The notes under the pieces: model-generated
Database searches by the model: none
Seen by the model: only the letters and a program-made list of their open reading frames with translations
Told to the model about the DNA's origin: nothing
Shown: piece after piece, positions 6,676-64,000 of the stretch
Layout: the number at the start of each line of letters is the position of its first letter
How positions within the stretch are numbered: the stretch's first letter is position 1
Origin: Escherichia coli
Lineage (GTDB): Bacteria > Pseudomonadota > Gammaproteobacteria > Enterobacterales > Enterobacteriaceae
DNA length: 64,000 nt
Direction: 5' to 3' (one strand)
Assembly (NCBI RefSeq): GCF_024223415.1
Contig: NZ_CP100500.1
Position numbers and translations under genes: made by a program

Positions 6676-8575
6676 TATGATGAGTGCTGTCACAACAGCA
6701 TTACAGCCCCTGATAAGGGCATTGCCGGTGACGGCAGTTGAATGGGCTGACCAGTATTATTATCTGCCTAAAGAATCCTCATACGGTGACGGCGAATGGA
6801 AAACGCTGCCGTTCCAGATCGCCATCATGAACAGTATGGGTAATGACCTGATCCGCACTGTTAATCTGATTAAATCTGCCCGTATTGGTTATACAAAGAT
6901 GTTGCTGGGGGTGGTCGGGTATTTTATTGAGCATAAATCCCGAAACAGTCTGCTTTTTCAGCCCACGGATTCTGCCGCTGAAGATTTTATGAAGTCTCAC
7001 GTGGAGACGACGATTAGGGACGTGCCATGCCTGAAAGACCTTTCCCCATGGCTGGGTCGTAAACATCGTGATAATACCCTCACGCTGAAACGCTTTTCAT
7101 CGGGCGTCGGTTTCTGGTGCCTGGGCGGCGCTGCCGCCAAAAACTACCGTGAAAAATCCGTGGACGTGGTCTGCTATGACGAACTCTCATCGTTTGAACC
7201 TGATGTTGAAAAAGAGGGCTCGCCAACCCTGCTGGGGGATAAGCGTATTGAGGGCTCTGTATGGCCAAAATCCATTCGCGGCTCGACGCCTAAAATCAAA
7301 GGCTCCTGCCAGATCGAAAAAGCCGCTAACGAGTCGGCACATTTCATGCGTTTTTATGTGCCCTGTCCGCACTGTGGGGAGGAGCAGTATCTGAAATTTG
7401 GTGATGATGCCTCGGCTTTCGGTCTTAAGTGGGAGAAGAATAAGCCAGAAAGTGTTTTCTACCTTTGTGAGCATCATGGCTGTGTGATCCATCAGTCTGA
7501 GCTTGACCAGAGTAACGGGCGGTGGATCTGTGAAAACACGGGGATGTGGACCCGTGACGGTCTGACGTTTTTCAGCGCCCGGGGTGATGAAATTCCGCCG
7601 CCGCGCTCCATCACTTTCCATATCTGGACGGCGTACAGTCCGTTCACCACCTGGGTACAGATAGTCTATGACTGGCTGGATGCACTGAAAGATCCCAACG
7701 GCCTGAAAACCTTTGTGAACACCACGCTGGGCGAGACCTGGGAAGAGGCCGTGGGCGAAAAACTCGATCACCAGGTACTGATGGATAAGGTTGTGCGTTA
7801 CACGGCGGCGGTGCCTGCCCGGGTGGTTTATCTGACGGCGGGCATTGACTCGCAGCGAAACCGTTTTGAGATGTATGTCTGGGGATGGGCTCCGGGAGAG
7901 GAAGCCTTTCTGGTGGATAAAATCATCATTATGGGACGTCCCGATGAGGAAGAGACGCTGTTACGTGTGGATGCGGCGATCAACAAAAAATACTGCCATG
8001 CAGACGGAACCGAAATGACCATTTCCCGTGTCTGCTGGGACATCGGGGGGATCGATGGCGAAATCGTTTATCAGAGGTCAAAAAAACACGGTGTTTTCCG
8101 GGTGCTGCCGGTAAAAGGCGCATCTGTCTATGGCAAGCCGGTGATCACCATGCCAAAAACCCGCAATCAGCGGGGCGTGTATCTGTGTGAAGTGGGGACG
8201 GACACCGCAAAAGAAATTCTCTATGCCCGTATGAAAGCCGCTCCCACGCCTGCGGATGAATCCACGTCGTATGCCATCCGTTTTCCTGATGATCCGGAGA
8301 TTTTTTCGCAGACAGAGGCGCAGCAACTGGTCGCGGAAGAGCTTGTGGAGAAGTGGGAAAAAGGAAAGATGCGTCTGCTGTGGGATAACAAAAAGCGGCG
8401 TAACGAAGCGCTGGACTGCCTGGTGTATGCCTACGCGGCATTACGTGTGTCCGTGCAACGCTGGCAGCTTGATCTGGCTGTACTGGCAAAATCCCGGGAA
8501 GAAGAGACGACCCGGCCAACCCTTAAAGAACTGGCAGCGAAGCTGTCCGGAGGAGTGAATGGTTACAGTCGCTGA
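6647..8575 (+). CDS. A: Terminase large subunit (gpA-like)
   Basis: 642 aa; MNISEQQLNN...TAVEWADQYYYLPKESSYGDGEWKTLPFQIAIMNSMG closely parallels lambda gpA. Confidence 0.95.
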   Translation: MNISEQQLNNMMSAVTTALQPLIRALPVTAVEWADQYYYLPKESSYGDGEWKTLPFQIAIMNSMGNDLIRTVNLIKSARIGYTKMLLGVVGYFIEHKSRNSLLFQPTDSAAEDFMKSHVETTIRDVPCLKDLSPWLGRKHRDNTLTLKRFSSGVGFWCLGGAAAKNYREKSVDVVCYDELSSFEPDVEKEGSPTLLGDKRIEGSVWPKSIRGSTPKIKGSCQIEKAANESAHFMRFYVPCPHCGEEQYLKFGDDASAFGLKWEKNKPESVFYLCEHHGCVIHQSELDQSNGRWICENTGMWTRDGLTFFSARGDEIPPPRSITFHIWTAYSPFTTWVQIVYDWLDALKDPNGLKTFVNTTLGETWEEAVGEKLDHQVLMDKVVRYTAAVPARVVYLTAGIDSQRNRFEMYVWGWAPGEEAFLVDKIIIMGRPDEEETLLRVDAAINKKYCHADGTEMTISRVCWDIGGIDGEIVYQRSKKHGVFRVLPVKGASVYGKPVITMPKTRNQRGVYLCEVGTDTAKEILYARMKAAPTPADESTSYAIRFPDDPEIFSQTEAQQLVAEELVEKWEKGKMRLLWDNKKRRNEALDCLVYAYAALRVSVQRWQLDLAVLAKSREEETTRPTLKELAAKLSGGVNGYSR

Positions 8576-10354: not shown

Positions 10355-11849
10355 TCTTTCACACATTATTGCCGCAGCATTCAATGAACCGCTGCTTCTG
10401 GAGCCCGCCTATGCGCGGGTTTTCTTTTGCGCGCTCGGGCGCGAGATGGGGGCAGCAAGTCTTTCGGTACCACAACAGCAGGTACAGCTTGATGCTCCCG
10501 GAATGCTGGCTGAAACGGACGAGTACATGGCCGGAGGTAAACGACCGGCCCGTGTTTACCGGGTGGTGAACGGTATTGCTGTACTGCCGGTGACCGGCAT
10601 GCTGGTGCACCGGCTGGGTGGTATGCGGCCATTTTCCGGAATGACAGGCTATGACGGCATTGTCGCCTGTCTTCAGCAGGCAATGGCGGACACCGCTGTC
10701 CGGGGCGTACTGCTGGACATTGACAGTCCGGGCGGGCAGGTCGCAGGCGCGTTTGACTGCGCTGACATGATTTACCGCCTCCGTCAGCAGAAGCCGGTCT
10801 GGGCACTGTGCAATGACACGGCCTGTTCTGCAGCCATGCTGCTGGCGTCGGCCTGCTCCCGACGGCTGGTTACCCAGACATCCCGTATCGGCTCCATTGG
10901 CGTGATGATGAGCCATCTCAGCTATGCCGGTCATCTGGCGCAGGCCGGTGTGGATATCACGCTGATTTATGCCGGGGCGCACAAGGTGGATGGCAATCAG
11001 TTTGAAGCCTTACCGGAAGAGGTGCGTCAGGACATGCAGCAGCGCATTGATGCGGCACACCGGATGTTTGCCGAAAAAGTGGCGATGTATACCGGGCTGT
11101 CTGTGGATGTGGTCACGGGAACAGAGGCCGCCGTTTTTGAAGGTCAGTCCGGCATTGAGGCCGGGCTGGCGGATGAATTAGTCAATGCGTCGGATGCCAT
11201 CAGTGTGATGACCACGGCGCTGTACACACATGATACAGGAGGCACTATGCCGCAATTAACTGCAACGGAAGCCGCCGCGCAGGAGAACCAGCGAGTGATG
11301 GGGATCCTGACGAGTAAGGAAGCGAAAGGACGTGAACAGCTTGCCACGATGCTGGCGGGACAACAGGGCATGAGCGTTGAACAGGCCCGGGAGATCCTGG
11401 CCGCGGCGGCACCACAGCAGCCGGTGGCATCCGCGCAGAGTGAAGCCGATCGCATTATGGCGTGTGAAGAGGCGAAAGGTCGTGAACAACTGGCGGCAAC
11501 GCTGGCGGCGATGCCGGAGATGACGGTGGAAAAAGCCCGCCCGATCCTGGCAGCTTCACCGCAGGCGGATGCCGGACCATCACTCCGTGATCAGATCATG
11601 GCCCTGGATGAGGCAAAAGGGGCTGAGGCGCAGGCTGAACAGCTGGCTGCCTGCCCGGGAATGACCGTGGAGAACGCCCGGGCTGTGCTGGCTGCGGGAT
11701 CAGGTAAGGCAGAACCGGTCTCTGCATCCACAACCGCCATGTTTGAACATTTCATGGCGAACCATTCACCGGCAGCGGTACAGGGTGGCGTGCCACAGAC
11801 GTCAGCAGACGGTGATGCGGACGTGAAAATGCTCATGGCCATGCCATGA
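10344..11849 (+). CDS. C: Head maturation protease / scaffold (gpC with nested Nu3-like region)
   Basis: N-terminal half aligns with lambda C (ClpP-like protease); C-terminal part has three tandem ~40-aa EAKGREQLA repeats. Confidence 0.85.
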   Translation: MRRNLSHIIAAAFNEPLLLEPAYARVFFCALGREMGAASLSVPQQQVQLDAPGMLAETDEYMAGGKRPARVYRVVNGIAVLPVTGMLVHRLGGMRPFSGMTGYDGIVACLQQAMADTAVRGVLLDIDSPGGQVAGAFDCADMIYRLRQQKPVWALCNDTACSAAMLLASACSRRLVTQTSRIGSIGVMMSHLSYAGHLAQAGVDITLIYAGAHKVDGNQFEALPEEVRQDMQQRIDAAHRMFAEKVAMYTGLSVDVVTGTEAAVFEGQSGIEAGLADELVNASDAISVMTTALYTHDTGGTMPQLTATEAAAQENQRVMGILTSKEAKGREQLATMLAGQQGMSVEQAREILAAAAPQQPVASAQSEADRIMACEEAKGREQLAATLAAMPEMTVEKARPILAASPQADAGPSLRDQIMALDEAKGAEAQAEQLAACPGMTVENARAVLAAGSGKAEPVSASTTAMFEHFMANHSPAAVQGGVPQTSADGDADVKMLMAMP

Positions 11850-11885
11850 AGCCAGTGCTGACCATCAATAGGAGGTTTTTACAAT

Positions 11886-12233
11886 ATGGTAACGAAAACC
11901 ATCACTGAACAGCGTGCGGAAGTACGTATTTTTGCCGGTAATGATCCGGCTCATACCGCCACAGGCAGCAGCGGGATTTCCTCGCCAACACCGGCACTGA
12001 CGCCCCTGATGCTGGATGAAGCCACCGGGAAACTGGTGGTCTGGGACGGACAGAAAGCCGGTAGTGCGGTTGGCATACTGGTACTGCCGCTTGAAGGCAC
12101 AGAGACGGTGCTGACGTATTACAAGTCGGGAACCTTTGCGACGGAGGCAATCCGCTGGCCTGACAGTGTGGATGAACACAAAAAGGCCAACGCCTTTGCC
12201 GGTAGTGCCCTGAGTCACGCGGCGCTGCCGTAA
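11886..12233 (+). CDS. D: Head decoration protein D
   Basis: 115 aa; NDPAHTATGSSGIS...PLMLDEATGKLVVWDG...YKSGTF matches lambda gpD; strong SD. Confidence 0.9.
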   Translation: MVTKTITEQRAEVRIFAGNDPAHTATGSSGISSPTPALTPLMLDEATGKLVVWDGQKAGSAVGILVLPLEGTETVLTYYKSGTFATEAIRWPDSVDEHKKANAFAGSALSHAALP

Positions 12234-12290
12234 CACGTTATCAGGCCACCGCGGTGGCCTGACTGATTTCTGAATGAAAGGAACTGATTT

Positions 12291-13220
12291 ATGGGATTGT
12301 TTACGACCCGCCAGTTACTCGGTTATACCGAACAAAAAGTGAAATTTCGTGCGCTGTTTCTGGAGCTGTTTTTCCGTCGTACGGTGAATTTCCATACCGA
12401 AGAGGTGATGCTGGACAAAATTACCGGAAAAACGCCGGTGGCGGCCTATGTCTCCCCGGTTGTTGAAGGAAAAGTGCTGCGTCATCGTGGTGGTGAAACC
12501 CGCGTGTTGCGTCCGGGCTACGTCAAGCCGAAACACGAATTTAATTCCCGGCAGGCGGTTGAGCGCCTTCCTGGTGAAGATCCGGCTCAACTGAACGATC
12601 CGGCTTACCGCCGTCTGCGTATCATTACCGATAACCTCAAACAGGAAGAGCACGCGATTGTCCAGGTGGAAGAAATGCAGGCGGTAAATGCCGTGCTGTA
12701 TGGCAAATACACCATGGAAGGAGACCAGTTCGAGAAAATTGAGGTCGATTTTGGCAGGTCGACGAAGAATAACATTACGCAGGCCAGTGGTAAAAAATGG
12801 TCTGAGCACGATCGTGACACGTTCGATCCTGCGCATGATATTGACCTCTACTGCGACCAGGCCAGCGGCCTTGTGAATATTGCCATTATGGACGGTACCG
12901 TCTGGCGTCTGCTGAATGGTTTTAAGCTGTTCCGCGAAAAACTGGATACCCGTCGCGGTTCAAATTCGCAACTCGAAACGGCAGTGAAAGACCTGGGGGC
13001 GGTGGTGTCTTTCAAAGGGTATTACGGTGATCTGGCCATTGTGGTGGCGAAAACGTCTTATGTGGCAGAGGACGGTACCGAAAAACGTTATCTGCCAGAC
13101 GGCACGCTGGTCCTGGGGAATACTGCTGCAGATGGGATCCGTTGTTACGGTGCCATTCAGGATGCACAGGCGTTGTCTGAAGGAGTGGTGCCTCTTCCCG
13201 TTATCCGAAACACTGGCTGA
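12291..13220 (+). CDS. E: Major capsid protein E, apparently frameshifted near 13186 (C-terminal 44 codons continue in another frame to 13318)
   Basis: N-terminal 300 aa align with lambda gpE; after ...QALSEGV the frame reaches a stop, while frame +2 encodes ASSRYPKHWLTVGDPAREFTMTQSAPLMVLPDPDEFVVVQVK, the expected gpE C-terminus. Confidence 0.75.
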   Translation: MGLFTTRQLLGYTEQKVKFRALFLELFFRRTVNFHTEEVMLDKITGKTPVAAYVSPVVEGKVLRHRGGETRVLRPGYVKPKHEFNSRQAVERLPGEDPAQLNDPAYRRLRIITDNLKQEEHAIVQVEEMQAVNAVLYGKYTMEGDQFEKIEVDFGRSTKNNITQASGKKWSEHDRDTFDPAHDIDLYCDQASGLVNIAIMDGTVWRLLNGFKLFREKLDTRRGSNSQLETAVKDLGAVVSFKGYYGDLAIVVAKTSYVAEDGTEKRYLPDGTLVLGNTAADGIRCYGAIQDAQALSEGVVPLPVIRNTG

Positions 13221-13327
13221 CGGTGGGGGATCCCGCCCGTGAATTTACCATGACGCAGTCCGCGCCGCTGATGGTGTTGCCGGACCCGGATGAGTTTGTG
13301 GTGGTACAGGTGAAATAATCCGTGAGC

Positions 13328-13355
13328 GGGGGCGAAATGCCCCCGTGTCTTTTTT
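13328..13355 (+). terminator. Hairpin plus T-run between capsid gene E and FI
   Basis: gggggc-gaaat-gccccc, 5 nt, then TTTTTT. Confidence 0.5.
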
Positions 13356-13369
13356 CACAGGGGGCTGAT

Positions 13370-13732
13370 ATGGCAACGAAAGAGCAAAATCTGAAACGGC
13401 TTGATGAACTGGCCCTGATTCTGGGGCGTGAGCCGGATATATCCGGGAGTGCCGCAGAGATAGCGCAGCGGGTGGCGGAATGGGAAGAGGAAGCAGAGGA
13501 CAAAAACCAGGAGAGTGATGAGAACGAAAGGCATTTGATGACGTATAGCCACTCCACTGGCGGGGATGAAATGAGCACTGTTCGTGTACTCAAAACCCTG
13601 CATGTGGCGGGAAAACATCCGCATGATGACAGTGATATGGAGATTGTTGTTACAGGTATGACTGTCAGAGTTGATCCAGTGAATGTTGCGGAACTTGTCC
13701 TGGAGGGGCTTGTTACAGATGAAAGTTATTAA
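13370..13732 (+). CDS. FI: DNA-packaging protein FI-like
   Basis: Position after E, lambda FI-like size, acidic; SD AGGGGG. Confidence 0.7.
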   Translation: MATKEQNLKRLDELALILGREPDISGSAAEIAQRVAEWEEEAEDKNQESDENERHLMTYSHSTGGDEMSTVRVLKTLHVAGKHPHDDSDMEIVVTGMTVRVDPVNVAELVLEGLVTDESY

Positions 13733-14081
13733 TATCAGGGATAACGGTTTTGATACAGCCATTGCCCGGGCTGATGAAACGATACGCGGGCATATGGGAA
13801 CGTCAGCCACCATTACATCCGGTGAGCAGCCCGGCGCAGTAATACGTGGTGTTTTTGATGACCCTGAAAATATCAGCTATGCCGGACAGGGCGTGCGCGT
13901 TGAAGGCTCCAGCCCGTCCCTGTTTGTCCGGACTGATGATGTGCGGCAACTGCGGCGTGGAGACACGCTGACCATCGGTGAGGAAAACTTCTGGATAGAC
14001 CGGGTTTCGCCGGATGATGGCGGAAGCTGTCATCTCTGGCTTGGGCGGGGCGTACCGCCTGCCGTTAATCGTCGCCGCTGA
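13719..14081 (+). CDS. FII: Head completion protein FII
   Basis: ...FDTAIARADETIRGHMGTSATITSGEQPGAVIRGVFDDPENISYAGQGVRVEGSSPSLFVRTDDVRQLRRGDTLTIGEENFW... near-identical to lambda FII as recalled. Confidence 0.9.
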   Translation: MKVINIRDNGFDTAIARADETIRGHMGTSATITSGEQPGAVIRGVFDDPENISYAGQGVRVEGSSPSLFVRTDDVRQLRRGDTLTIGEENFWIDRVSPDDGGSCHLWLGRGVPPAVNRRR

Positions 14082-14092
14082 AAGGGGGATGT

Positions 14093-14668
14093 ATGGCCAT
14101 ACAGGGTCTTGAGCAGGCCGTTGAAAACCTCAGCCGTATCAGCAGAACGGCGGTGCCTGGTGCCGCCGCAATGGCCATTAACCGCGTGGCCACAACGGCG
14201 ATTAATCAGTCTTCGTCTCAGGTCGCCCGTGAAACCCGGGTGCCGAGAAAACTTGTTAAAGAGCGATCCAGACTGAAACGGGCTACGGTCAGAAATCCGA
14301 ACGCAAAAATTATCGTTAACCGCGGCGATCTTCCTGTGATTAAGCTGGGGATCAGGATGCTGGGACGTCGCCCGAACAGCATACTCAAAGCCGGTCAGCA
14401 TCGTTATCAGCGGGCATTCATCCAGCGACTGAATAATGGGCGCTGGCATGTTATGCAACGTCTGCCAGAAGCCAGGTATGCGAAGGGCAATGACGATAAG
14501 GGAAGGAAAAAGCGTAATCGTCTTCCCATTCAGGTGGTGAAAATTCCGATGTCGGCCCCACTGAAACAGGCTTTTGATGAGAACGTTAACCGTATCCGAC
14601 GCGAACGTCTGCCAAAAGAACTGAGCTATGCGCTGAAACAACAACTGAGGATTGTGATAAAGCGATGA
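14093..14668 (+). CDS. Z: Minor tail protein Z
   Basis: 191 aa, lambda Z position and size. Confidence 0.85.
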   Translation: MAIQGLEQAVENLSRISRTAVPGAAAMAINRVATTAINQSSSQVARETRVPRKLVKERSRLKRATVRNPNAKIIVNRGDLPVIKLGIRMLGRRPNSILKAGQHRYQRAFIQRLNNGRWHVMQRLPEARYAKGNDDKGRKKRNRLPIQVVKIPMSAPLKQAFDENVNRIRRERLPKELSYALKQQLRIVIKR

Positions 14669-15060
14669 AAAATACTGATATCCGTACAGCCGTACTGGAT
14701 GCACTGGAGAAGCATGACACCGGGGCGACGTTTTTTGATGGTCGCCCCGCTGTTTTTGATGAGGCGGATTTTCCGGCAGTTGCCGTTTATCTCACCGGCG
14801 CTGAATACACGGGCGAAGAGCTGGACAGCGATACCTGGCAGGCGGAGCTGCATATTGAAGTTTTCCTGCCTGCTCAGGTGCCGGATTCAGAGCTGGATTC
14901 GTGGATGGAGTCCCGGATTTATCCGGTGATGAGCGATATCCCGGCACTGTCAGATTTGATCACCAGTATGGTGGCCAGTGGCTATGACTACCGGCGCGAC
15001 GATGATGCGGGCCTGTGGAGTTCAGCCGATCTGACTTATGTCATTACCTATGAAATGTGA
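14665..15060 (+). CDS. U: Minor tail protein U (tail terminator)
   Basis: 131 aa, near-identical to lambda gpU (…[46 protein letters not shown]…). Confidence 0.95.
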
Positions 15061-15067
15061 GGACGAT

Positions 15068-15808
15068 ATGCCAACACCAAATCCTCTGGCACCGGTGAAA
15101 GGGGCCGGGACCACACTGTGGGTTTATAAGGGGAACGGTGACCCTTATGCGAACCCGCTTTCAGACAATGACTGGTCGCGTCTGGCTAAAGTTAAAGACC
15201 TGACGCCCGGCGAACTGACCGCAGATTTCTATGACGACAGCTATCTCGATGATGAAGATTCGGACTGGGCCGCGACCGGACAGGGGCAGAAATCCGCCGG
15301 AGATACCAGCTTCACGCTGGCGTGGATGCCCGGAGAGCAGGGGCAGCAGGCGCTGCTGGCGTGGTTTAATGAAGGTGATACCCGTGCCTATAAAATCCGC
15401 TTCCCGAACGGCACGGTCGATGTGTTCCGCGGCTGGGTCAGCAGCATCGGTAAGGCGGTGACAGCGAAGGAAGTGATCACCCGCACGGTGAAAGTCACCA
15501 ACGTGGGACGTCCGTCGATGGCAGAAGATCGCAGCACGCTAACAGCGGCAACCGGCATGACCGTGACGCCTGCCAGCACCTCGGTGGTGAAAGGGCAGAG
15601 CACCACGCTGACCGTGGCATTCCAGCCGGAAGGCGCAACCGACAAGAGCTTCCGTGCGGTGTCTGCGGATAAAACAAAAGCCACCGTGTCGGTCAGTGGT
15701 ATGACCATCACCGTGAAGGGCGTTGCTGCAGGCAGGGTCAACATTCCGGTCGTATCCGGTAATGGTGAACTTGCTGCGGTTGCAGAAATCAACGTCACCG
15801 CCAGTTAA
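15068..15808 (+). CDS. V: Major tail protein V
   Basis: 246 aa, lambda V length; C-terminal Ig-like region. Confidence 0.9.
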
Positions 15809-15823
15809 TCCGGAGAGTCAGCG

Positions 15824-16246
15824 ATGTTCCTGAAAAACGAATCATTTGAACATAACGGCGTGACCGTCACGCTTTCTGAACTGTCAGCCCTGCAGCGTAT
15901 TGAGCATCTTGCCTGGTTGAAAGAGCAGGAAAAAAAGGCTGAATCCAGTGGCAACCTGCAGGTGTCTGTAGAGGATCTTATCAGAGGCGGGGCGTTTCTG
16001 GTGGCGATGTCTCTGTGGCATAACCATCCGCAGAAGACAAAGCTGCTGCCCATGAATGAAGCCATTACGCAGATTGAGCAGGAAGTGCTTACCACCTGGC
16101 CCACGGAGGCAATTGCTCAGGCTGAAAACGTGGTGTTACGTCTGTCCGGAATGTCTGAGTTTGTTGTGAATAATGCCCCTGAACAGGCAGATGACGCCGG
16201 GCCTGCAGAGCCTGTTTCTGCGGGAAAGTGTTCGACGGTGAGCTGA
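15824..16246 (+). CDS. G: Tail assembly chaperone G
   Basis: 140 aa; ends just after the slippery heptamer GGGAAAG. Confidence 0.9.
   Translation: MFLKNESFEHNGVTVTLSELSALQRIEHLAWLKEQEKKAESSGNLQVSVEDLIRGGAFLVAMSLWHNHPQKTKLLPMNEAITQIEQEVLTTWPTEAIAQAENVVLRLSGMSEFVVNNAPEQADDAGPAEPVSAGKCSTVS
16222..16228 (+). promoter_or_regulatory. Programmed -1 ribosomal frameshift slippery site (G GGA AAG) producing the G-T fusion
   Basis: Exact lambda G/GT heptamer located 6 codons before the G stop; the T frame opens here. Confidence 0.8.
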
Positions 16247-41344: not shown

Positions 41345-41650
41345 ATATTCATCCCTGAAATGTATTAATGAAATAAACGATATTTTACGCGCAATAAATG
41401 TTTGGCGCATTAGTTGTTTGAGCGAAAAATATCTGGAAAGCAGATCACAGTAAATAAAAAAACCTGCTGGTGAGGCAGGTTCTTTTATTTACTATTTTCA
41501 GGCCTAACACCACAGCCTGTGCAACATCGTGTTCCAACGAACGAATTATAACCACGGCTGGACCCCGTTGCAATTAAGATAATGAGATTTATAATCCAGG
41601 CCATTGGGACGTTGCGCCGGATCGGACCAATTTGAATTATTTAGAGTATA

Positions 41651-60143: not shown

Positions 60144-60416
60144 ATGTCTCATACAATCCGTGATAAACAGAAACTGAAAGCGCGTGCCAGTAAGATTCAG
60201 GGCCAGGTCGTGGCGCTCAAGAAAATGCTCGACGAGCCGCACGAATGCGCTGCAGTTTTACAACAGATTGCTGCTATCCGTGGCGCGGTAAACGGTCTGA
60301 TGCGGGAAGTGATTAAAGGTCATCTGACGGAACACATCGTTCACCAGGGGGATGAGCTAAAACGTGAAGAAGATCTGGATGTCGTTCTGAAGGTGCTGGA
60401 TTCATATATCAAATAA
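60144..60416 (+). CDS. rcnR: Metal-responsive repressor RcnR (CsoR/RcnR family)
   Basis: 90 aa; divergent from rcnA. Confidence 0.95.
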
Positions 60417-60505
60417 TTTATTAACGCGATTGTAAAACTGCCGTTTTTCCTCGTTTACAACGCGTGCGCTGGACATTACCATCCTCCTCTGCGATTTATC
60501 ATCGC

Positions 60506-60557
60506 AACCAAACGACTCGGGGTGCCCTTCTGCGTGAAGGCTGAGAAATACCCGTAT
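60506..60557 (+). promoter_or_regulatory. thiM TPP riboswitch aptamer, 5' portion only, truncated by insertion
   Basis: AACCAAACGACTCGGGGTGCCCTTCTGCGTGAAGGCTGAGAAATACCCGTAT matches the E. coli thiM leader as recalled, then diverges (expected CACCTGATCTGG..., found TTTCTCATTTAG...). Confidence 0.75.
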
Positions 60558-60745
60558 TTTCTCATTTAGTGTTTTTTGTGGTTCGGGGTTGTTCGTGGTT
60601 GTTTGTGTATGTGTTTGATATATATTGAATTATTGTGTTTTCTTGTTTGTTGTTGTTCGTCGTTGTTCGTAGAGCTTCAACAAAATGTGTGGTCAGTTGT
60701 GTGGTCAGTTTTTTGAGGCTGGAGGACTGAAAAGAGGATCTGATA

Positions 60746-61969
60746 GTGGGAAAAGCACTAAACAAACTGAGCGATTCGACGTTAAAAAAATTGGCGTCTG
60801 TCCAAGCAGAAAAAGAGCGTTTTTACTCCGACGGGGGCGGGCTGGAGATTAAACACTCAAAGGGCGGCAAATTAACCTGGTATTTCCGGTACCGAACGGG
60901 AGGCCGTGAGGTTGCCGCAGAGCGGTTAAAGCTGGGGGCTTACCCTGAATTGTCGCTGAAAGCTGCAAGGGAAAAACGCGCACAGTGCCGGGCATGGCTG
61001 GCTGAGGGTAAAAACCCCCGTTATGAGTTGTGCGCCACAGTACAGGAAGCGCTAAAACCCGTTACGGTGAAGGAGGCGATTAACTACTGGCTGGATGAAT
61101 ATGCGAAGGATAACCGCAAAGACTACATAAAGCTGGTGCAACGTATGGATAAGCACATCATTTGCCATATAGGGGCAATTCCCCTTGATAAGTGTGATAC
61201 AAGGCAGTGGATCGCATGTTTTGACCGTGTACGAAAAAAAGCACCAGTAGCAGCAGGGCACGTCATGCAAACCTGCAAACAGGCGCTAAAGTTCTGCCGC
61301 AGGAGACGCTACGCGTTCAGTAATGCCCTGGACGATTTGATCGTCAGCGATGTGGGTAAGAGAGCAGAAATTCGCGAGAGGGTGCACAGCAACAGCGAAT
61401 TAAAGGAAATTTTACGCGCTATTGATGGTGATGTGTTCGCGCCTTACTACAGCGCGTTAATGCGCTTGCTGATTGTGTTCGGGTGCAGAACGGCAGAGGT
61501 CAGACTTTCAGAGATCAAAGAATGGGATCTGAAAGAAATGTTGTGGACAGTGCCAAAAGAGCATAGCAAAACGAAGGTAACGATATTCAGGCCAATCCCC
61601 GATGGCATTTTGCCGTTCATTCAGAAGCTGGTGGAGCAGAACCGGCATACAGGGTTATTACTCGGAGAACTGAAAAAAGATACCACGGTAGCGCAATATG
61701 GGCGAAATGCGCATAAGCGGCTTAACCAGGAACACTGGACGCTGCATGACTTTCGCCACACGTTTACAACGATGCTGAACGATTTAGGTGTCGATCCGCA
61801 TATCGTGGAGCACATCACAGCGCATCAGATGCCCGGTCAGCAAAAAACCTATAACCATTCACGCTATTTACAGGCGAAGCGAGACGCTCTGAATCTGTGG
61901 GTTGAGCGCCTCGATGTGCTGGCTGGAAATCATGAAAATATTGTCATATTAAGGGCTGAAAATGAATAA
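60746..61969 (+). CDS. int: Tyrosine recombinase, P4/CP4-57-type integrase
   Basis: 407 aa; C-terminal catalytic motifs (HDFRHTF...HITAH...Y); GTG start. Confidence 0.9.
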   Translation: MGKALNKLSDSTLKKLASVQAEKERFYSDGGGLEIKHSKGGKLTWYFRYRTGGREVAAERLKLGAYPELSLKAAREKRAQCRAWLAEGKNPRYELCATVQEALKPVTVKEAINYWLDEYAKDNRKDYIKLVQRMDKHIICHIGAIPLDKCDTRQWIACFDRVRKKAPVAAGHVMQTCKQALKFCRRRRYAFSNALDDLIVSDVGKRAEIRERVHSNSELKEILRAIDGDVFAPYYSALMRLLIVFGCRTAEVRLSEIKEWDLKEMLWTVPKEHSKTKVTIFRPIPDGILPFIQKLVEQNRHTGLLLGELKKDTTVAQYGRNAHKRLNQEHWTLHDFRHTFTTMLNDLGVDPHIVEHITAHQMPGQQKTYNHSRYLQAKRDALNLWVERLDVLAGNHENIVILRAENE

Positions 61970-62747
61970 TCTGGGCCGTGTATATCATACGCTGCCAATG
62001 GCAGCTAAAAAAATGGGATGTACTGTAGAGGATATTCTACATTTTGGTGCAACTAACCGACTTGAAATATGTGCGTATATTGATGATATTGAACAGAGAA
62101 AAGATTATTGCACTTTTAATGTGTTTTTTGATAATGAAGATAGCGAGAATAGTTTTTCTAAAACTATAAATAAATATAATTCCATATTTACTGACATGTA
62201 TGAAATATCATTGTTTAATTATAATGATGAGTTTTGTGTTGATGATGAGCGTATGGTTATTGAAGGTTTGTATGCTAATCATATGAAAGGCTTTTTTGCA
62301 ATACCATCTGAATTTCTTGTCGAAGTTGAATTGTCAAGTGCCTGTGAAATCATAAATCTATCGCCTCGTTATTTATATACACCGAAAGGTTATGGTGATT
62401 ATATTCGGTTGGATAGTATAGAAGGTCTTTCTATTCCAGAAAACAGGCTCGTGATATTCGATAGTGAGATATCGGGTTTTAATTATCAAAAGAAACCTAA
62501 ATATGCCGGAGGTGAAAGAGAATCACCTAAAACCAGAGCTAAAAAAGCCGAGATAATACCTGCTCTCATAAAACTGATCCCTGAGATGCAAGATGTGGAT
62601 TTGGAGGATACACCCGTATCCAAAATTGCAGAAATGATAGAGGTTATTGCTGCACAAAGAGGGGTTGAGTTACCTAGCACTCACAGGCAGACATGGCAGA
62701 AATATTTAGGGCGTGATGCTGGTGACGTTCCAAAACGTCAAAAGTGA
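61962..62747 (+). CDS. Hypothetical protein, low GC, start overlaps the integrase stop
   Basis: 261-aa ORF overlapping the int stop (ATGAATAA); AT-rich codon usage; no family recognised. Confidence 0.6.
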   Translation: MNNLGRVYHTLPMAAKKMGCTVEDILHFGATNRLEICAYIDDIEQRKDYCTFNVFFDNEDSENSFSKTINKYNSIFTDMYEISLFNYNDEFCVDDERMVIEGLYANHMKGFFAIPSEFLVEVELSSACEIINLSPRYLYTPKGYGDYIRLDSIEGLSIPENRLVIFDSEISGFNYQKKPKYAGGERESPKTRAKKAEIIPALIKLIPEMQDVDLEDTPVSKIAEMIEVIAAQRGVELPSTHRQTWQKYLGRDAGDVPKRQK

Positions 62748-62837: not shown

Positions 62838-63062
62838 ATGAATCAAAATACACAATTTCAATCACTATCAGATCGCGTAATCCGTGAGGATGAATGCCGT
62901 AAGTTAACAGGAGTGTGCCGCACTACACGCTACGAACTGGAGAAAAAAGGGAGCTTTCCGTCTCGCCGTAATCTTGGTGGGCGTTCTGTAGGTTGGCTGC
63001 TGTCCGAGGTTATGGAATGGGTTAAAAGCCGGGATCGCATTAATTCAGGCAAGGCAGCGTAA
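62838..63062 (+). CDS. alpA: AlpA-family phage transcriptional regulator
   Basis: 74 aa; HTH region RKLTGVCRTTRYELEKKGSFPSRRNLGGRSVGWLLSEVMEWV typical of AlpA. Confidence 0.85.
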   Translation: MNQNTQFQSLSDRVIREDECRKLTGVCRTTRYELEKKGSFPSRRNLGGRSVGWLLSEVMEWVKSRDRINSGKAA

Positions 63063-63485: not shown

Positions 63486-63683
63486 TTATTCTGATTCTTT
63501 GGCCTTGCGGCGCTGTTCATATTTTAATTTGCGTCCACAGGCATCTAAGACCCATGCGGAAAAATTAGCACTAGGATTAGTTAATTTTTCTTGTTCAACG
63601 CTGGCATCAATCCCATCTATAAGCTCATGTGGGAATCGAATATTTTTCTTTGCTGATTTGTTGTTTGTGTTACCACTAGACAT
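63486..63683 (-). CDS. YlcI/YnfO-family ribbon-helix-helix-like small protein, candidate repressor
   Basis: 65 aa with NIRFP...NFSAWV..AC motif; SD GAGGTG; divergent from an operator-containing promoter. Confidence 0.7.
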   Translation of the reverse strand: MSSGNTNNKSAKKNIRFPHELIDGIDASVEQEKLTNPSANFSAWVLDACGRKLKYEQRRKAKESE

Positions 63684-63790: not shown

Positions 63791-63883
63791 GTTTGGGTTG
63801 CATTGCTCAAATTAAGCAACGCCCCGCAGTGCTCGCAACACATGCAGGGCGTCTAACCAAACCGTTAATAGGAGTAACGATTA

Positions 63884-64000
63884 TGGCTGGAACACAGCAT
63901 ACCCCACGCCTTGCGCACACACAAACCGCCTTTGTGTGGCGTTTTCTGGCACTGAGTGCCGGAGAATCTCAAATTATCCACGTAACCGCCTGGACGGAAC
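63884..64000 (+). CDS. Hypothetical protein, 5' end only (runs off the window)
   Basis: ATG with SD AGGAG downstream of the operator-controlled promoter. Confidence 0.5.

Follow-up and report, generated by a model that had tools for sequence, protein, structure and literature searches.

An Integrase-Bearing Island, Very Probably of the PICI Type, Splits the thiM TPP Riboswitch Aptamer in Escherichia coli

Introduction

The locus described here raises a double question: which element has entered the interval between rcnR and thiM in a strain of Escherichia coli, where the homology to the thiM leader is broken within the TPP riboswitch aptamer, and does thiM still possess a working riboswitch on the other side of it? 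It is known that, in the thiM riboswitch, the binding of TPP closes P1 and frees the anti-Shine-Dalgarno strand, which sequesters the ribosome-binding site; in the ligand-free RNA, the 3' strand of P1 pairs with the anti-Shine-Dalgarno strand and the ribosome-binding site is open. It is also known that elements whose P4-family integrases target tRNA or tmRNA genes, such as P4 at leuX and CP4-57 at ssrA, duplicate the 3' part of the RNA gene, leaving the gene intact. The stretch of DNA under analysis (hereafter, the window) is 64,000 nucleotides long; it stops at position 64000, inside the element, and covers the first 3.4 kb of it, the right junction lying beyond.

The Junction Between rcnR and the Element

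The features on the two sides of the break are the following:

60144–60416, + strand: rcnR (so annotated in all relatives), the chromosomal ORF that precedes the thiM leader
60454–60482, + strand: predicted native thiM promoter (TTTACA-17-TACCAT), the sole consensus-type promoter in 60380–60800
60506–60557, + strand: 5' part of the thiM leader/TPP aptamer (P1-5', P2, P3, J3-2 and P2-3'), 100% identical to K-12, stopping before P4/P5
60544–60557, no strand: attL copy of the 14-bp att core AGAAATACCCGTAT, a perfect direct repeat in seven relatives
60558–60745, + strand: int-proximal arm (P' arm of attP), T-rich, 188 nt, 37% GC and 46% T, conserved in relatives
60653–60712, + strand: 60-bp arm repeat with tandem TGTGTGGTCAGT(T) units, candidate arm-type integrase sites
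60746–61969, + strand: P4-type tyrosine integrase, 407 aa, GTG start (PF13356 and PF00589; phrog_1 integrase, 5e-67)

From the rcnR stop codon to the break (60417–60557, 141 nt), the window is 100% identical to the rcnR-thiM interval of K-12 MG1655, and the homology ends exactly at 60557, right after ...GAGAAATACCCGTAT. Past this point, K-12 reads on as CACCTGATCTGGATAATGCC and the window as TTTCTCATTTAGTG; in other words, ...CCCGTAT is followed by TTTCTCATTTAG... in the window and by CACCTGATCTGG... in K-12. The initial annotation had reported 52 matching nucleotides of the thiM leader and then a break, followed by an AT-rich arm and the gene of a P4-type integrase; the match, corresponding to 60506–60557, was accurate to the base, and the arm and the integrase are borne out by the GC content and by the two domains listed above. 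The comparison with strains having an uninterrupted rcnR-thiM interval, which it had proposed, gave a clear outcome, since the native leader reads CACCTGATCTGG after CCCGTAT, unlike the window.

When 60510–61969 was used as a megablast query against 5,426 complete E. coli genomes, those with an intact riboswitch (thousands) aligned to positions 1–48 of the query only, i.e., up to 60557. The junction with the int element (half-aptamer and int both required) was found in 75/5,426 genomes; a stricter rcnR-int junction was present in 71 genomes, the count of 75 adding O157:H7 backgrounds, and the interval was uninterrupted in 4,728. The thiM att site is possessed by nearly all E. coli, and its occupancy is low. 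Since the junction recurs in 75 genomes and is always matched by another copy of the core where the element ends, on this comparison it is not a chance resemblance. No tRNA or tmRNA was detected at the junction by ARAGORN and Rfam in the window, whose tRNAs are located solely at 1777–2009. The junction falls inside the thiM leader, and it does not show the RNA gene, rebuilt by the element, of a tRNA/tmRNA-inserted island.

The Far End of the Element and the Relatives

Seven relatives were fetched (L001, L005–L009 and L011, the last one being the EcCI224 locus discussed below). In all of them, the element is about 10–15 kb long (10.6–15.8 kb between the core copies) and is bounded by a perfect 14-bp repeat of AGAAATACCCGTAT, so that the second junction with a direct repeat that the initial annotation had suggested looking for does exist at the far end in 7/7 relatives. 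Downstream of the right core, all seven continue with CACCTGATCTGG... and the remainder of the thiM leader, after which thiM and thiD are annotated, both of full length. It had been predicted that both thiMD and an intact riboswitch would lie beyond the element; this holds for thiMD in 7/7 relatives, but the riboswitch is represented there by its 3' half only.

Despite their differing cargo, all relatives have int, the two arms, and the core in common. Replication genes (DNA primase, DUF927 or RepA helicase) are annotated in all seven; L005 and L011 carry a DNA primase and a ClpP-protease/major-capsid fusion, L006–L009 the full capsid, protease, portal, connector, HNH, TerS, and TerL set of capsid-forming PICIs, and L001 DUF927 and PerC. 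The last ~205 bp before the right core are conserved in the six aligned relatives, the sequences being divergent further in. The closest whole-element match in the collection has 81% coverage and 94.7% identity, and none is identical. Past int, every element of the collection loses colinearity with the window, and the one in the window is therefore, as judged from these alignments, another mosaic member of the group. The right junction expected in the window strain is ...AATTAGTA-AGAAATACCCGTAT-CACCTGATCTGG, followed by thiM.

The 60-bp arm repeat of the window recurs in the far-end arm of the relatives, at -123..-64 from the core, and in the attP rebuilt from L001 it occurs twice in direct orientation, once to each side of the core (-123..-64 and +109..+168). 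Two tandem TGTGTGGTCAGT(T) units are contained in each copy, i.e., four in the rebuilt attP, and they do not vary among the relatives. The attL sequence around the core is GAGAAA-TACCCGTAT-TTTCTC, in which a 6-bp inverted repeat encloses a 9-bp centre. By analogy, the four TGTGTGGTCAGT(T) copies are candidate arm-type sites for the N-terminal Arm-DNA-bind_3 domain of the integrase, and the GAGAAA/TTTCTC inverted repeats around TACCCGTAT are plausible core-type sites; strand exchange would then take place inside ACCCGT(AT). A conserved structured-RNA sequence would serve as an invariant landing pad, following the same logic as tRNA targets, and excision after helper-phage induction would restore the riboswitch.

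It might be argued that the island is not an active satellite and that it represents a fixed, immobile remnant or a vertically inherited island. Its carriage in 1.4% of genomes only would agree with this idea, as would the outcome of the search for the excised form: with the attP junction pattern GTATTTTCTCA, no attP (excised) junction was recovered in IMG/VR or metagenome contigs, where 18 contigs matched, all of them attL. However, a full-length integrase is accompanied by perfect direct repeats and by two arms conserved in every relative; different cargo modules stand behind the shared arms; and the junction occurs in unrelated backgrounds (O157:H7, ETEC, and ST648; poultry, cattle, wildlife, and human isolates). 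An immobile remnant is, on the whole, unlikely. The combination of perfect repeats, intact integrases, swapped cargo, and unrelated lineages argues for several independent integrase-mediated insertions rather than for a single inherited scar.

A lone Saprospiraceae match to GTATTTCTCA, which has one T fewer than GTATTTTCTCA, was discarded as a chance 20-mer. Two public contigs (L016 and L023) have the first base of the att core as their own first base; these may be assembly breaks where occupied and empty sites coexist. In the IMG/VR provirus L019 (~8400–8480), attL is present and the aptamer is preceded by yet a third sequence.

Identity of the Element

Downstream of int, the window contains the following genes of the element:

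61962–62747, + strand: 261-aa ORF in the variable slot between int and alpA, AT-rich (36% GC), no family match
62838–63062, + strand: AlpA-type excisionase/transcriptional regulator (phrog_2790, 1e-17; phrog_66)
63486–63683, - strand: YlcI/YnfO family gene (NCBIfam NF041551, 59 bits versus a cut-off of 30)
63883–64000, + strand: start of an Icd-like gene (NF033153, 24.9 bits versus a cut-off of 25, borderline; PHROG matches; same gene order in relatives)

The integrase shows the P4-type architecture, with an N-terminal Arm-DNA-bind_3 (DUF4102) domain (PF13356, residues 8–94, 6e-18) and a C-terminal tyrosine recombinase domain (Phage_integrase, PF00589, residues 216–374, 2e-16); the H-x-x-R motif (HDFRH) is present in its translation. 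As in PICIs, int is located at one end of the element and alpA lies downstream in the same orientation (both on the + strand). The 261-aa ORF gave zero matches in Pfam, PHROGs, NCBIfam, and PADLOC, and in the relatives the int-alpA slot holds DUF6387 or other hypothetical proteins, the variability one would expect where accessory or defence cargo is placed.

The window very probably harbors the attL end of a PICI or of a capsid-forming PICI, put in by a P4-type integrase at the 14-bp core AGAAATACCCGTAT inside the thiM TPP aptamer. The site has a published counterpart: Table S1 of Fillol-Salom et al. 2018, ISME J (PMC6092414) lists the PICI EcCI224 of E. coli Ecol_224 (CP018948.1:1961620-1972242, 10.6 kb) with the att core AGAAATACCCGTAT and the att gene 'frmR-thiM', where 'frmR' is a misnaming of rcnR. 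According to the same work, E. coli PICIs use eight att sites that are never used by temperate phages, and most E. coli PICI att sites are intergenic or within genes (Table S1; PMC6092414). The core found here is the one listed for EcCI224, and the integrase and the arm had zero matches among 50,697 phage genomes, in agreement with that statement. The initial annotation, which had regarded a riboswitch as an unusual att site and tRNA or tmRNA as the norm, was overstated in this respect, since insertion outside tRNA genes is routine for E. coli PICI integrases and the core had been published. The word 'riboswitch' is absent from the main text of Fillol-Salom et al. 2018 (PMC6092414), and a full-text literature search of open-access papers retrieved no publication linking the thiM site, or any PICI site, to a riboswitch. 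The element and its att site are already known; what is new is the reading of the core as lying inside the TPP aptamer, which is broken without repair.

Compared over the part of the element that falls in the window, EcCI224 shares the att core and site, the arms, an integrase with 97% amino acid identity, and the gene order int - variable ORF - alpA - ylcI - icd. The ORF that follows int is different, encoding DUF6387 in EcCI224 versus the family-less 261-aa protein in the window, and the DNA beyond int is mosaic, with ~92–95% identity or unrelated. As regards capsid-forming PICIs, L006–L009, inserted at this att site, carry the full capsid-TerL set behind the same int-alpA-primase module, and the window ends before the region where capsid genes would stand.

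A P4-like satellite or a small prophage might also be considered, given the P4-type integrase, the Icd-like gene, the DUF927 primase-helicase of some relatives, and the fact that only the first 3.4 kb of the element are in the window. This is quite unlikely, since the rightward order int - alpA - icd - DUF4222 - primase matches the PICI layout, the capsid, portal, TerS, and TerL modules of the relatives match the layouts of capsid-forming PICIs, no P4 sid, psu, delta, or epsilon is annotated in the relatives, the closest element is published as a PICI, and the phage collection yielded no match.

The PICI at thiM can be set beside two other kinds of known systems. With the elements whose P4-family integrases target tRNA or tmRNA genes it shares the architecture, the position of int beside the junction, and a target in a conserved structured-RNA sequence; however, in those elements the duplication of the 3' part of the RNA gene keeps the gene whole, whereas here 14 bp are duplicated and the RNA is left broken. 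The other kind comprises prophages and islands whose insertion disrupts a gene and whose excision repairs it, known under the names of active lysogeny and regulated gene integrity. The likeness to them is that a functional unit is disrupted on insertion and would be regained through precise excision; the difference is that active lysogeny breaks a coding sequence, whereas the thiM island breaks a cis-regulatory RNA and its promoter linkage.

The Split Aptamer

The fragments on the two sides of the element were compared with the Rfam TPP model (RF00059, gathering threshold 54.3 bits). The native K-12 thiM leader scored 71.2 bits and was aligned end to end. The left half in the window scored 19.5 bits, with P1-5', P2, P3, and J3-2 aligned and without P4/P5 and P1-3', and the right-junction half in L001 scored 36.2 bits (E = 4e-4, cmscan); neither fragment reaches the 54.3 bits of a complete (P1–P5) aptamer. 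In the Rfam alignment, the 14-nt core corresponds to the AGA of CUGAGA (J3-2), the AAU linker, ACCC (the 3' strand of P2), and the GUAU of J2-4.

The right junction in the relatives retains P2-3', P4/P5, and P1-3' and is missing P1-5', P2-5', P3, and the CUG of CUGAGA. The element sequence that precedes the right core in the relatives is ...AAAAATTAGTA; in all of them, the junction reads TTAGTA-AGAAAT, which turns CUGAGA into GUAAGA and offers no GGGGUG partner for P2. The aptamer is thus shown to be split in two: the pyrimidine-sensing half (P1-5', P2, P3, and CUGAGA) stays beside rcnR, and the pyrophosphate-sensing half (P4/P5 and P1-3') stays with thiMD, which in the relatives lies 10–15 kb off. 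Within the seven relatives, comparison of the junctions shows that the element brings no substitute 5' aptamer half.

It is highly improbable that the far end, by means of a substitute promoter and 5' aptamer half, rebuilds a working TPP riboswitch before thiM in the manner of tRNA-targeting islands, because the 14 duplicated nucleotides of the aptamer and the weak full-length TPP alignment given by cmscan at the right junction of L001 are outweighed by a score below the threshold, by a 5' half that aligns via a 48-nt insertion with the P1, P2, and P3 pairs mismatched, by the TTAGTA-AGAAAT junction with its altered CUGAGA and absent P2 GGGGUG strand in all relatives, and by a far end without a consensus promoter, so that the idea is contradicted in seven relatives. 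Of the two outcomes that the initial annotation had left side by side, it is the loss of TPP control that the sequence favours, and the replacement promoter and 5' half that it speaks against (36.2 versus 54.3 bits; TTAGTA).

Predicted Consequences for thiMD

With the island integrated, the thiM leader would be unable to bind TPP, since the loss of P1-5', P2-5', and P3 deprives the ligand pocket of its pyrimidine-sensing half. The folding of the leader downstream of the element was predicted with RNAfold. In the native leader, the open conformer contains a GCCAGCGUAGGGAAG/CUUCUUCACGUUAUGGC stem and the Shine-Dalgarno sequence has an unpaired probability of 0.64; in the hybrid leader, the same stem is kept and the value is 0.62–0.77 when 20–100 nt of the upstream arm are included, dropping to 0.24 with 150 nt. 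The expression platform would therefore stay open at the Shine-Dalgarno sequence and the translation of thiM would be blind to thiamine; in these models, a thiamine-blind, translation-competent thiM mRNA is likely.

As regards transcription, the predicted thiM promoter is now cut off from thiM and faces int, located 264 nt downstream; no terminator-like site is predicted between the two, and the orphaned promoter would read toward int. A simple consensus scan of the last ~1 kb of three different elements revealed no sigma-70 promoter facing thiM. Severed from its own promoter and with no consensus replacement, thiMD would probably be transcribed at a lower level; the transcription of the two genes may be reduced, and weak promoters may exist in the AT-rich arm. 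It is known that ThiD is needed for de novo thiamine synthesis, and a reduced thiMD transcription could be costly for this reason.

In EcCI224 (L011), a strong terminator-like hairpin with an 11-bp stem (8 GC pairs), followed by T's, is located at 11034–11059 on the + strand, ~370 bp before the right core. Placed on the thiM-facing strand, it would block the read-through from island genes into thiMD.

A broader picture can be advanced tentatively, with the odds leaning somewhat against the whole of it: a satellite family would land on the most conserved stretch of a riboswitch aptamer without repairing it, and its carriage would rewire thiamine metabolism, uncoupling thiMD from both TPP sensing and its promoter (with either constitutive low expression or thiamine dependence via loss of ThiD as the outcome) and capturing the host thiM promoter for int, all of which would be reversed by precise excision. 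No supporting sign that excision is used as a regulatory switch emerged from the data. With the aptamer left as two non-functional halves by integration, about 1.4% of sequenced E. coli, some O157:H7 included, would carry a natural riboswitch knockout of thiMD, and the comparison of island-bearing with cured strains would provide a ready-made isogenic test of the in vivo contribution of TPP control over the salvage and HMP-P kinase operon. The reading of the site also widens the preference of integrases for conserved structured-RNA sequences, known for tRNA and tmRNA, to include a cis-regulatory RNA. If the expression of thiD truly falls, carrying the island would be metabolically costly, and the low occupancy of the site might stem from this.

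Other Features of the Locus and of the Window

Short matches in O157:H7 and B strains, where the homology starts from just before the aptamer, were considered as possible riboswitch-rebuilding elements and rejected, as they belong to integrase-less islands. In L003 (O157:H7, 13731–16003) and in L004 (B strain DL21, ~11780–15995), such islands replace the rcnR-thiM spacer and end just before an intact riboswitch, a different sequence replacing the K-12 thiM promoter region. The B-strain island is the McrX restriction island (PMC5487053). Since O157:H7 and B strains carry these other, integrase-less islands there, the rcnR-thiM interval is a hotspot independently of the PICI site.

The first part of the window (1–~29300) corresponds to the late region of a lambdoid prophage (terminase, portal, tape measure, J, Lom, and tail fibre), with a tRNA-Met/Arg/Thr trio at 1777–2009; it ends beside btsS, at the mlrA (yehV) insertion site. 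Some 30 kb separate it from the PICI, for which this prophage could be a helper phage. In the yeh region, the OrzO-P antitoxin small RNA was found at 41456–41531 on the - strand (Rfam RF02083, 99.9 bits), implying the existence of a zor-orz type I toxin-antitoxin locus.
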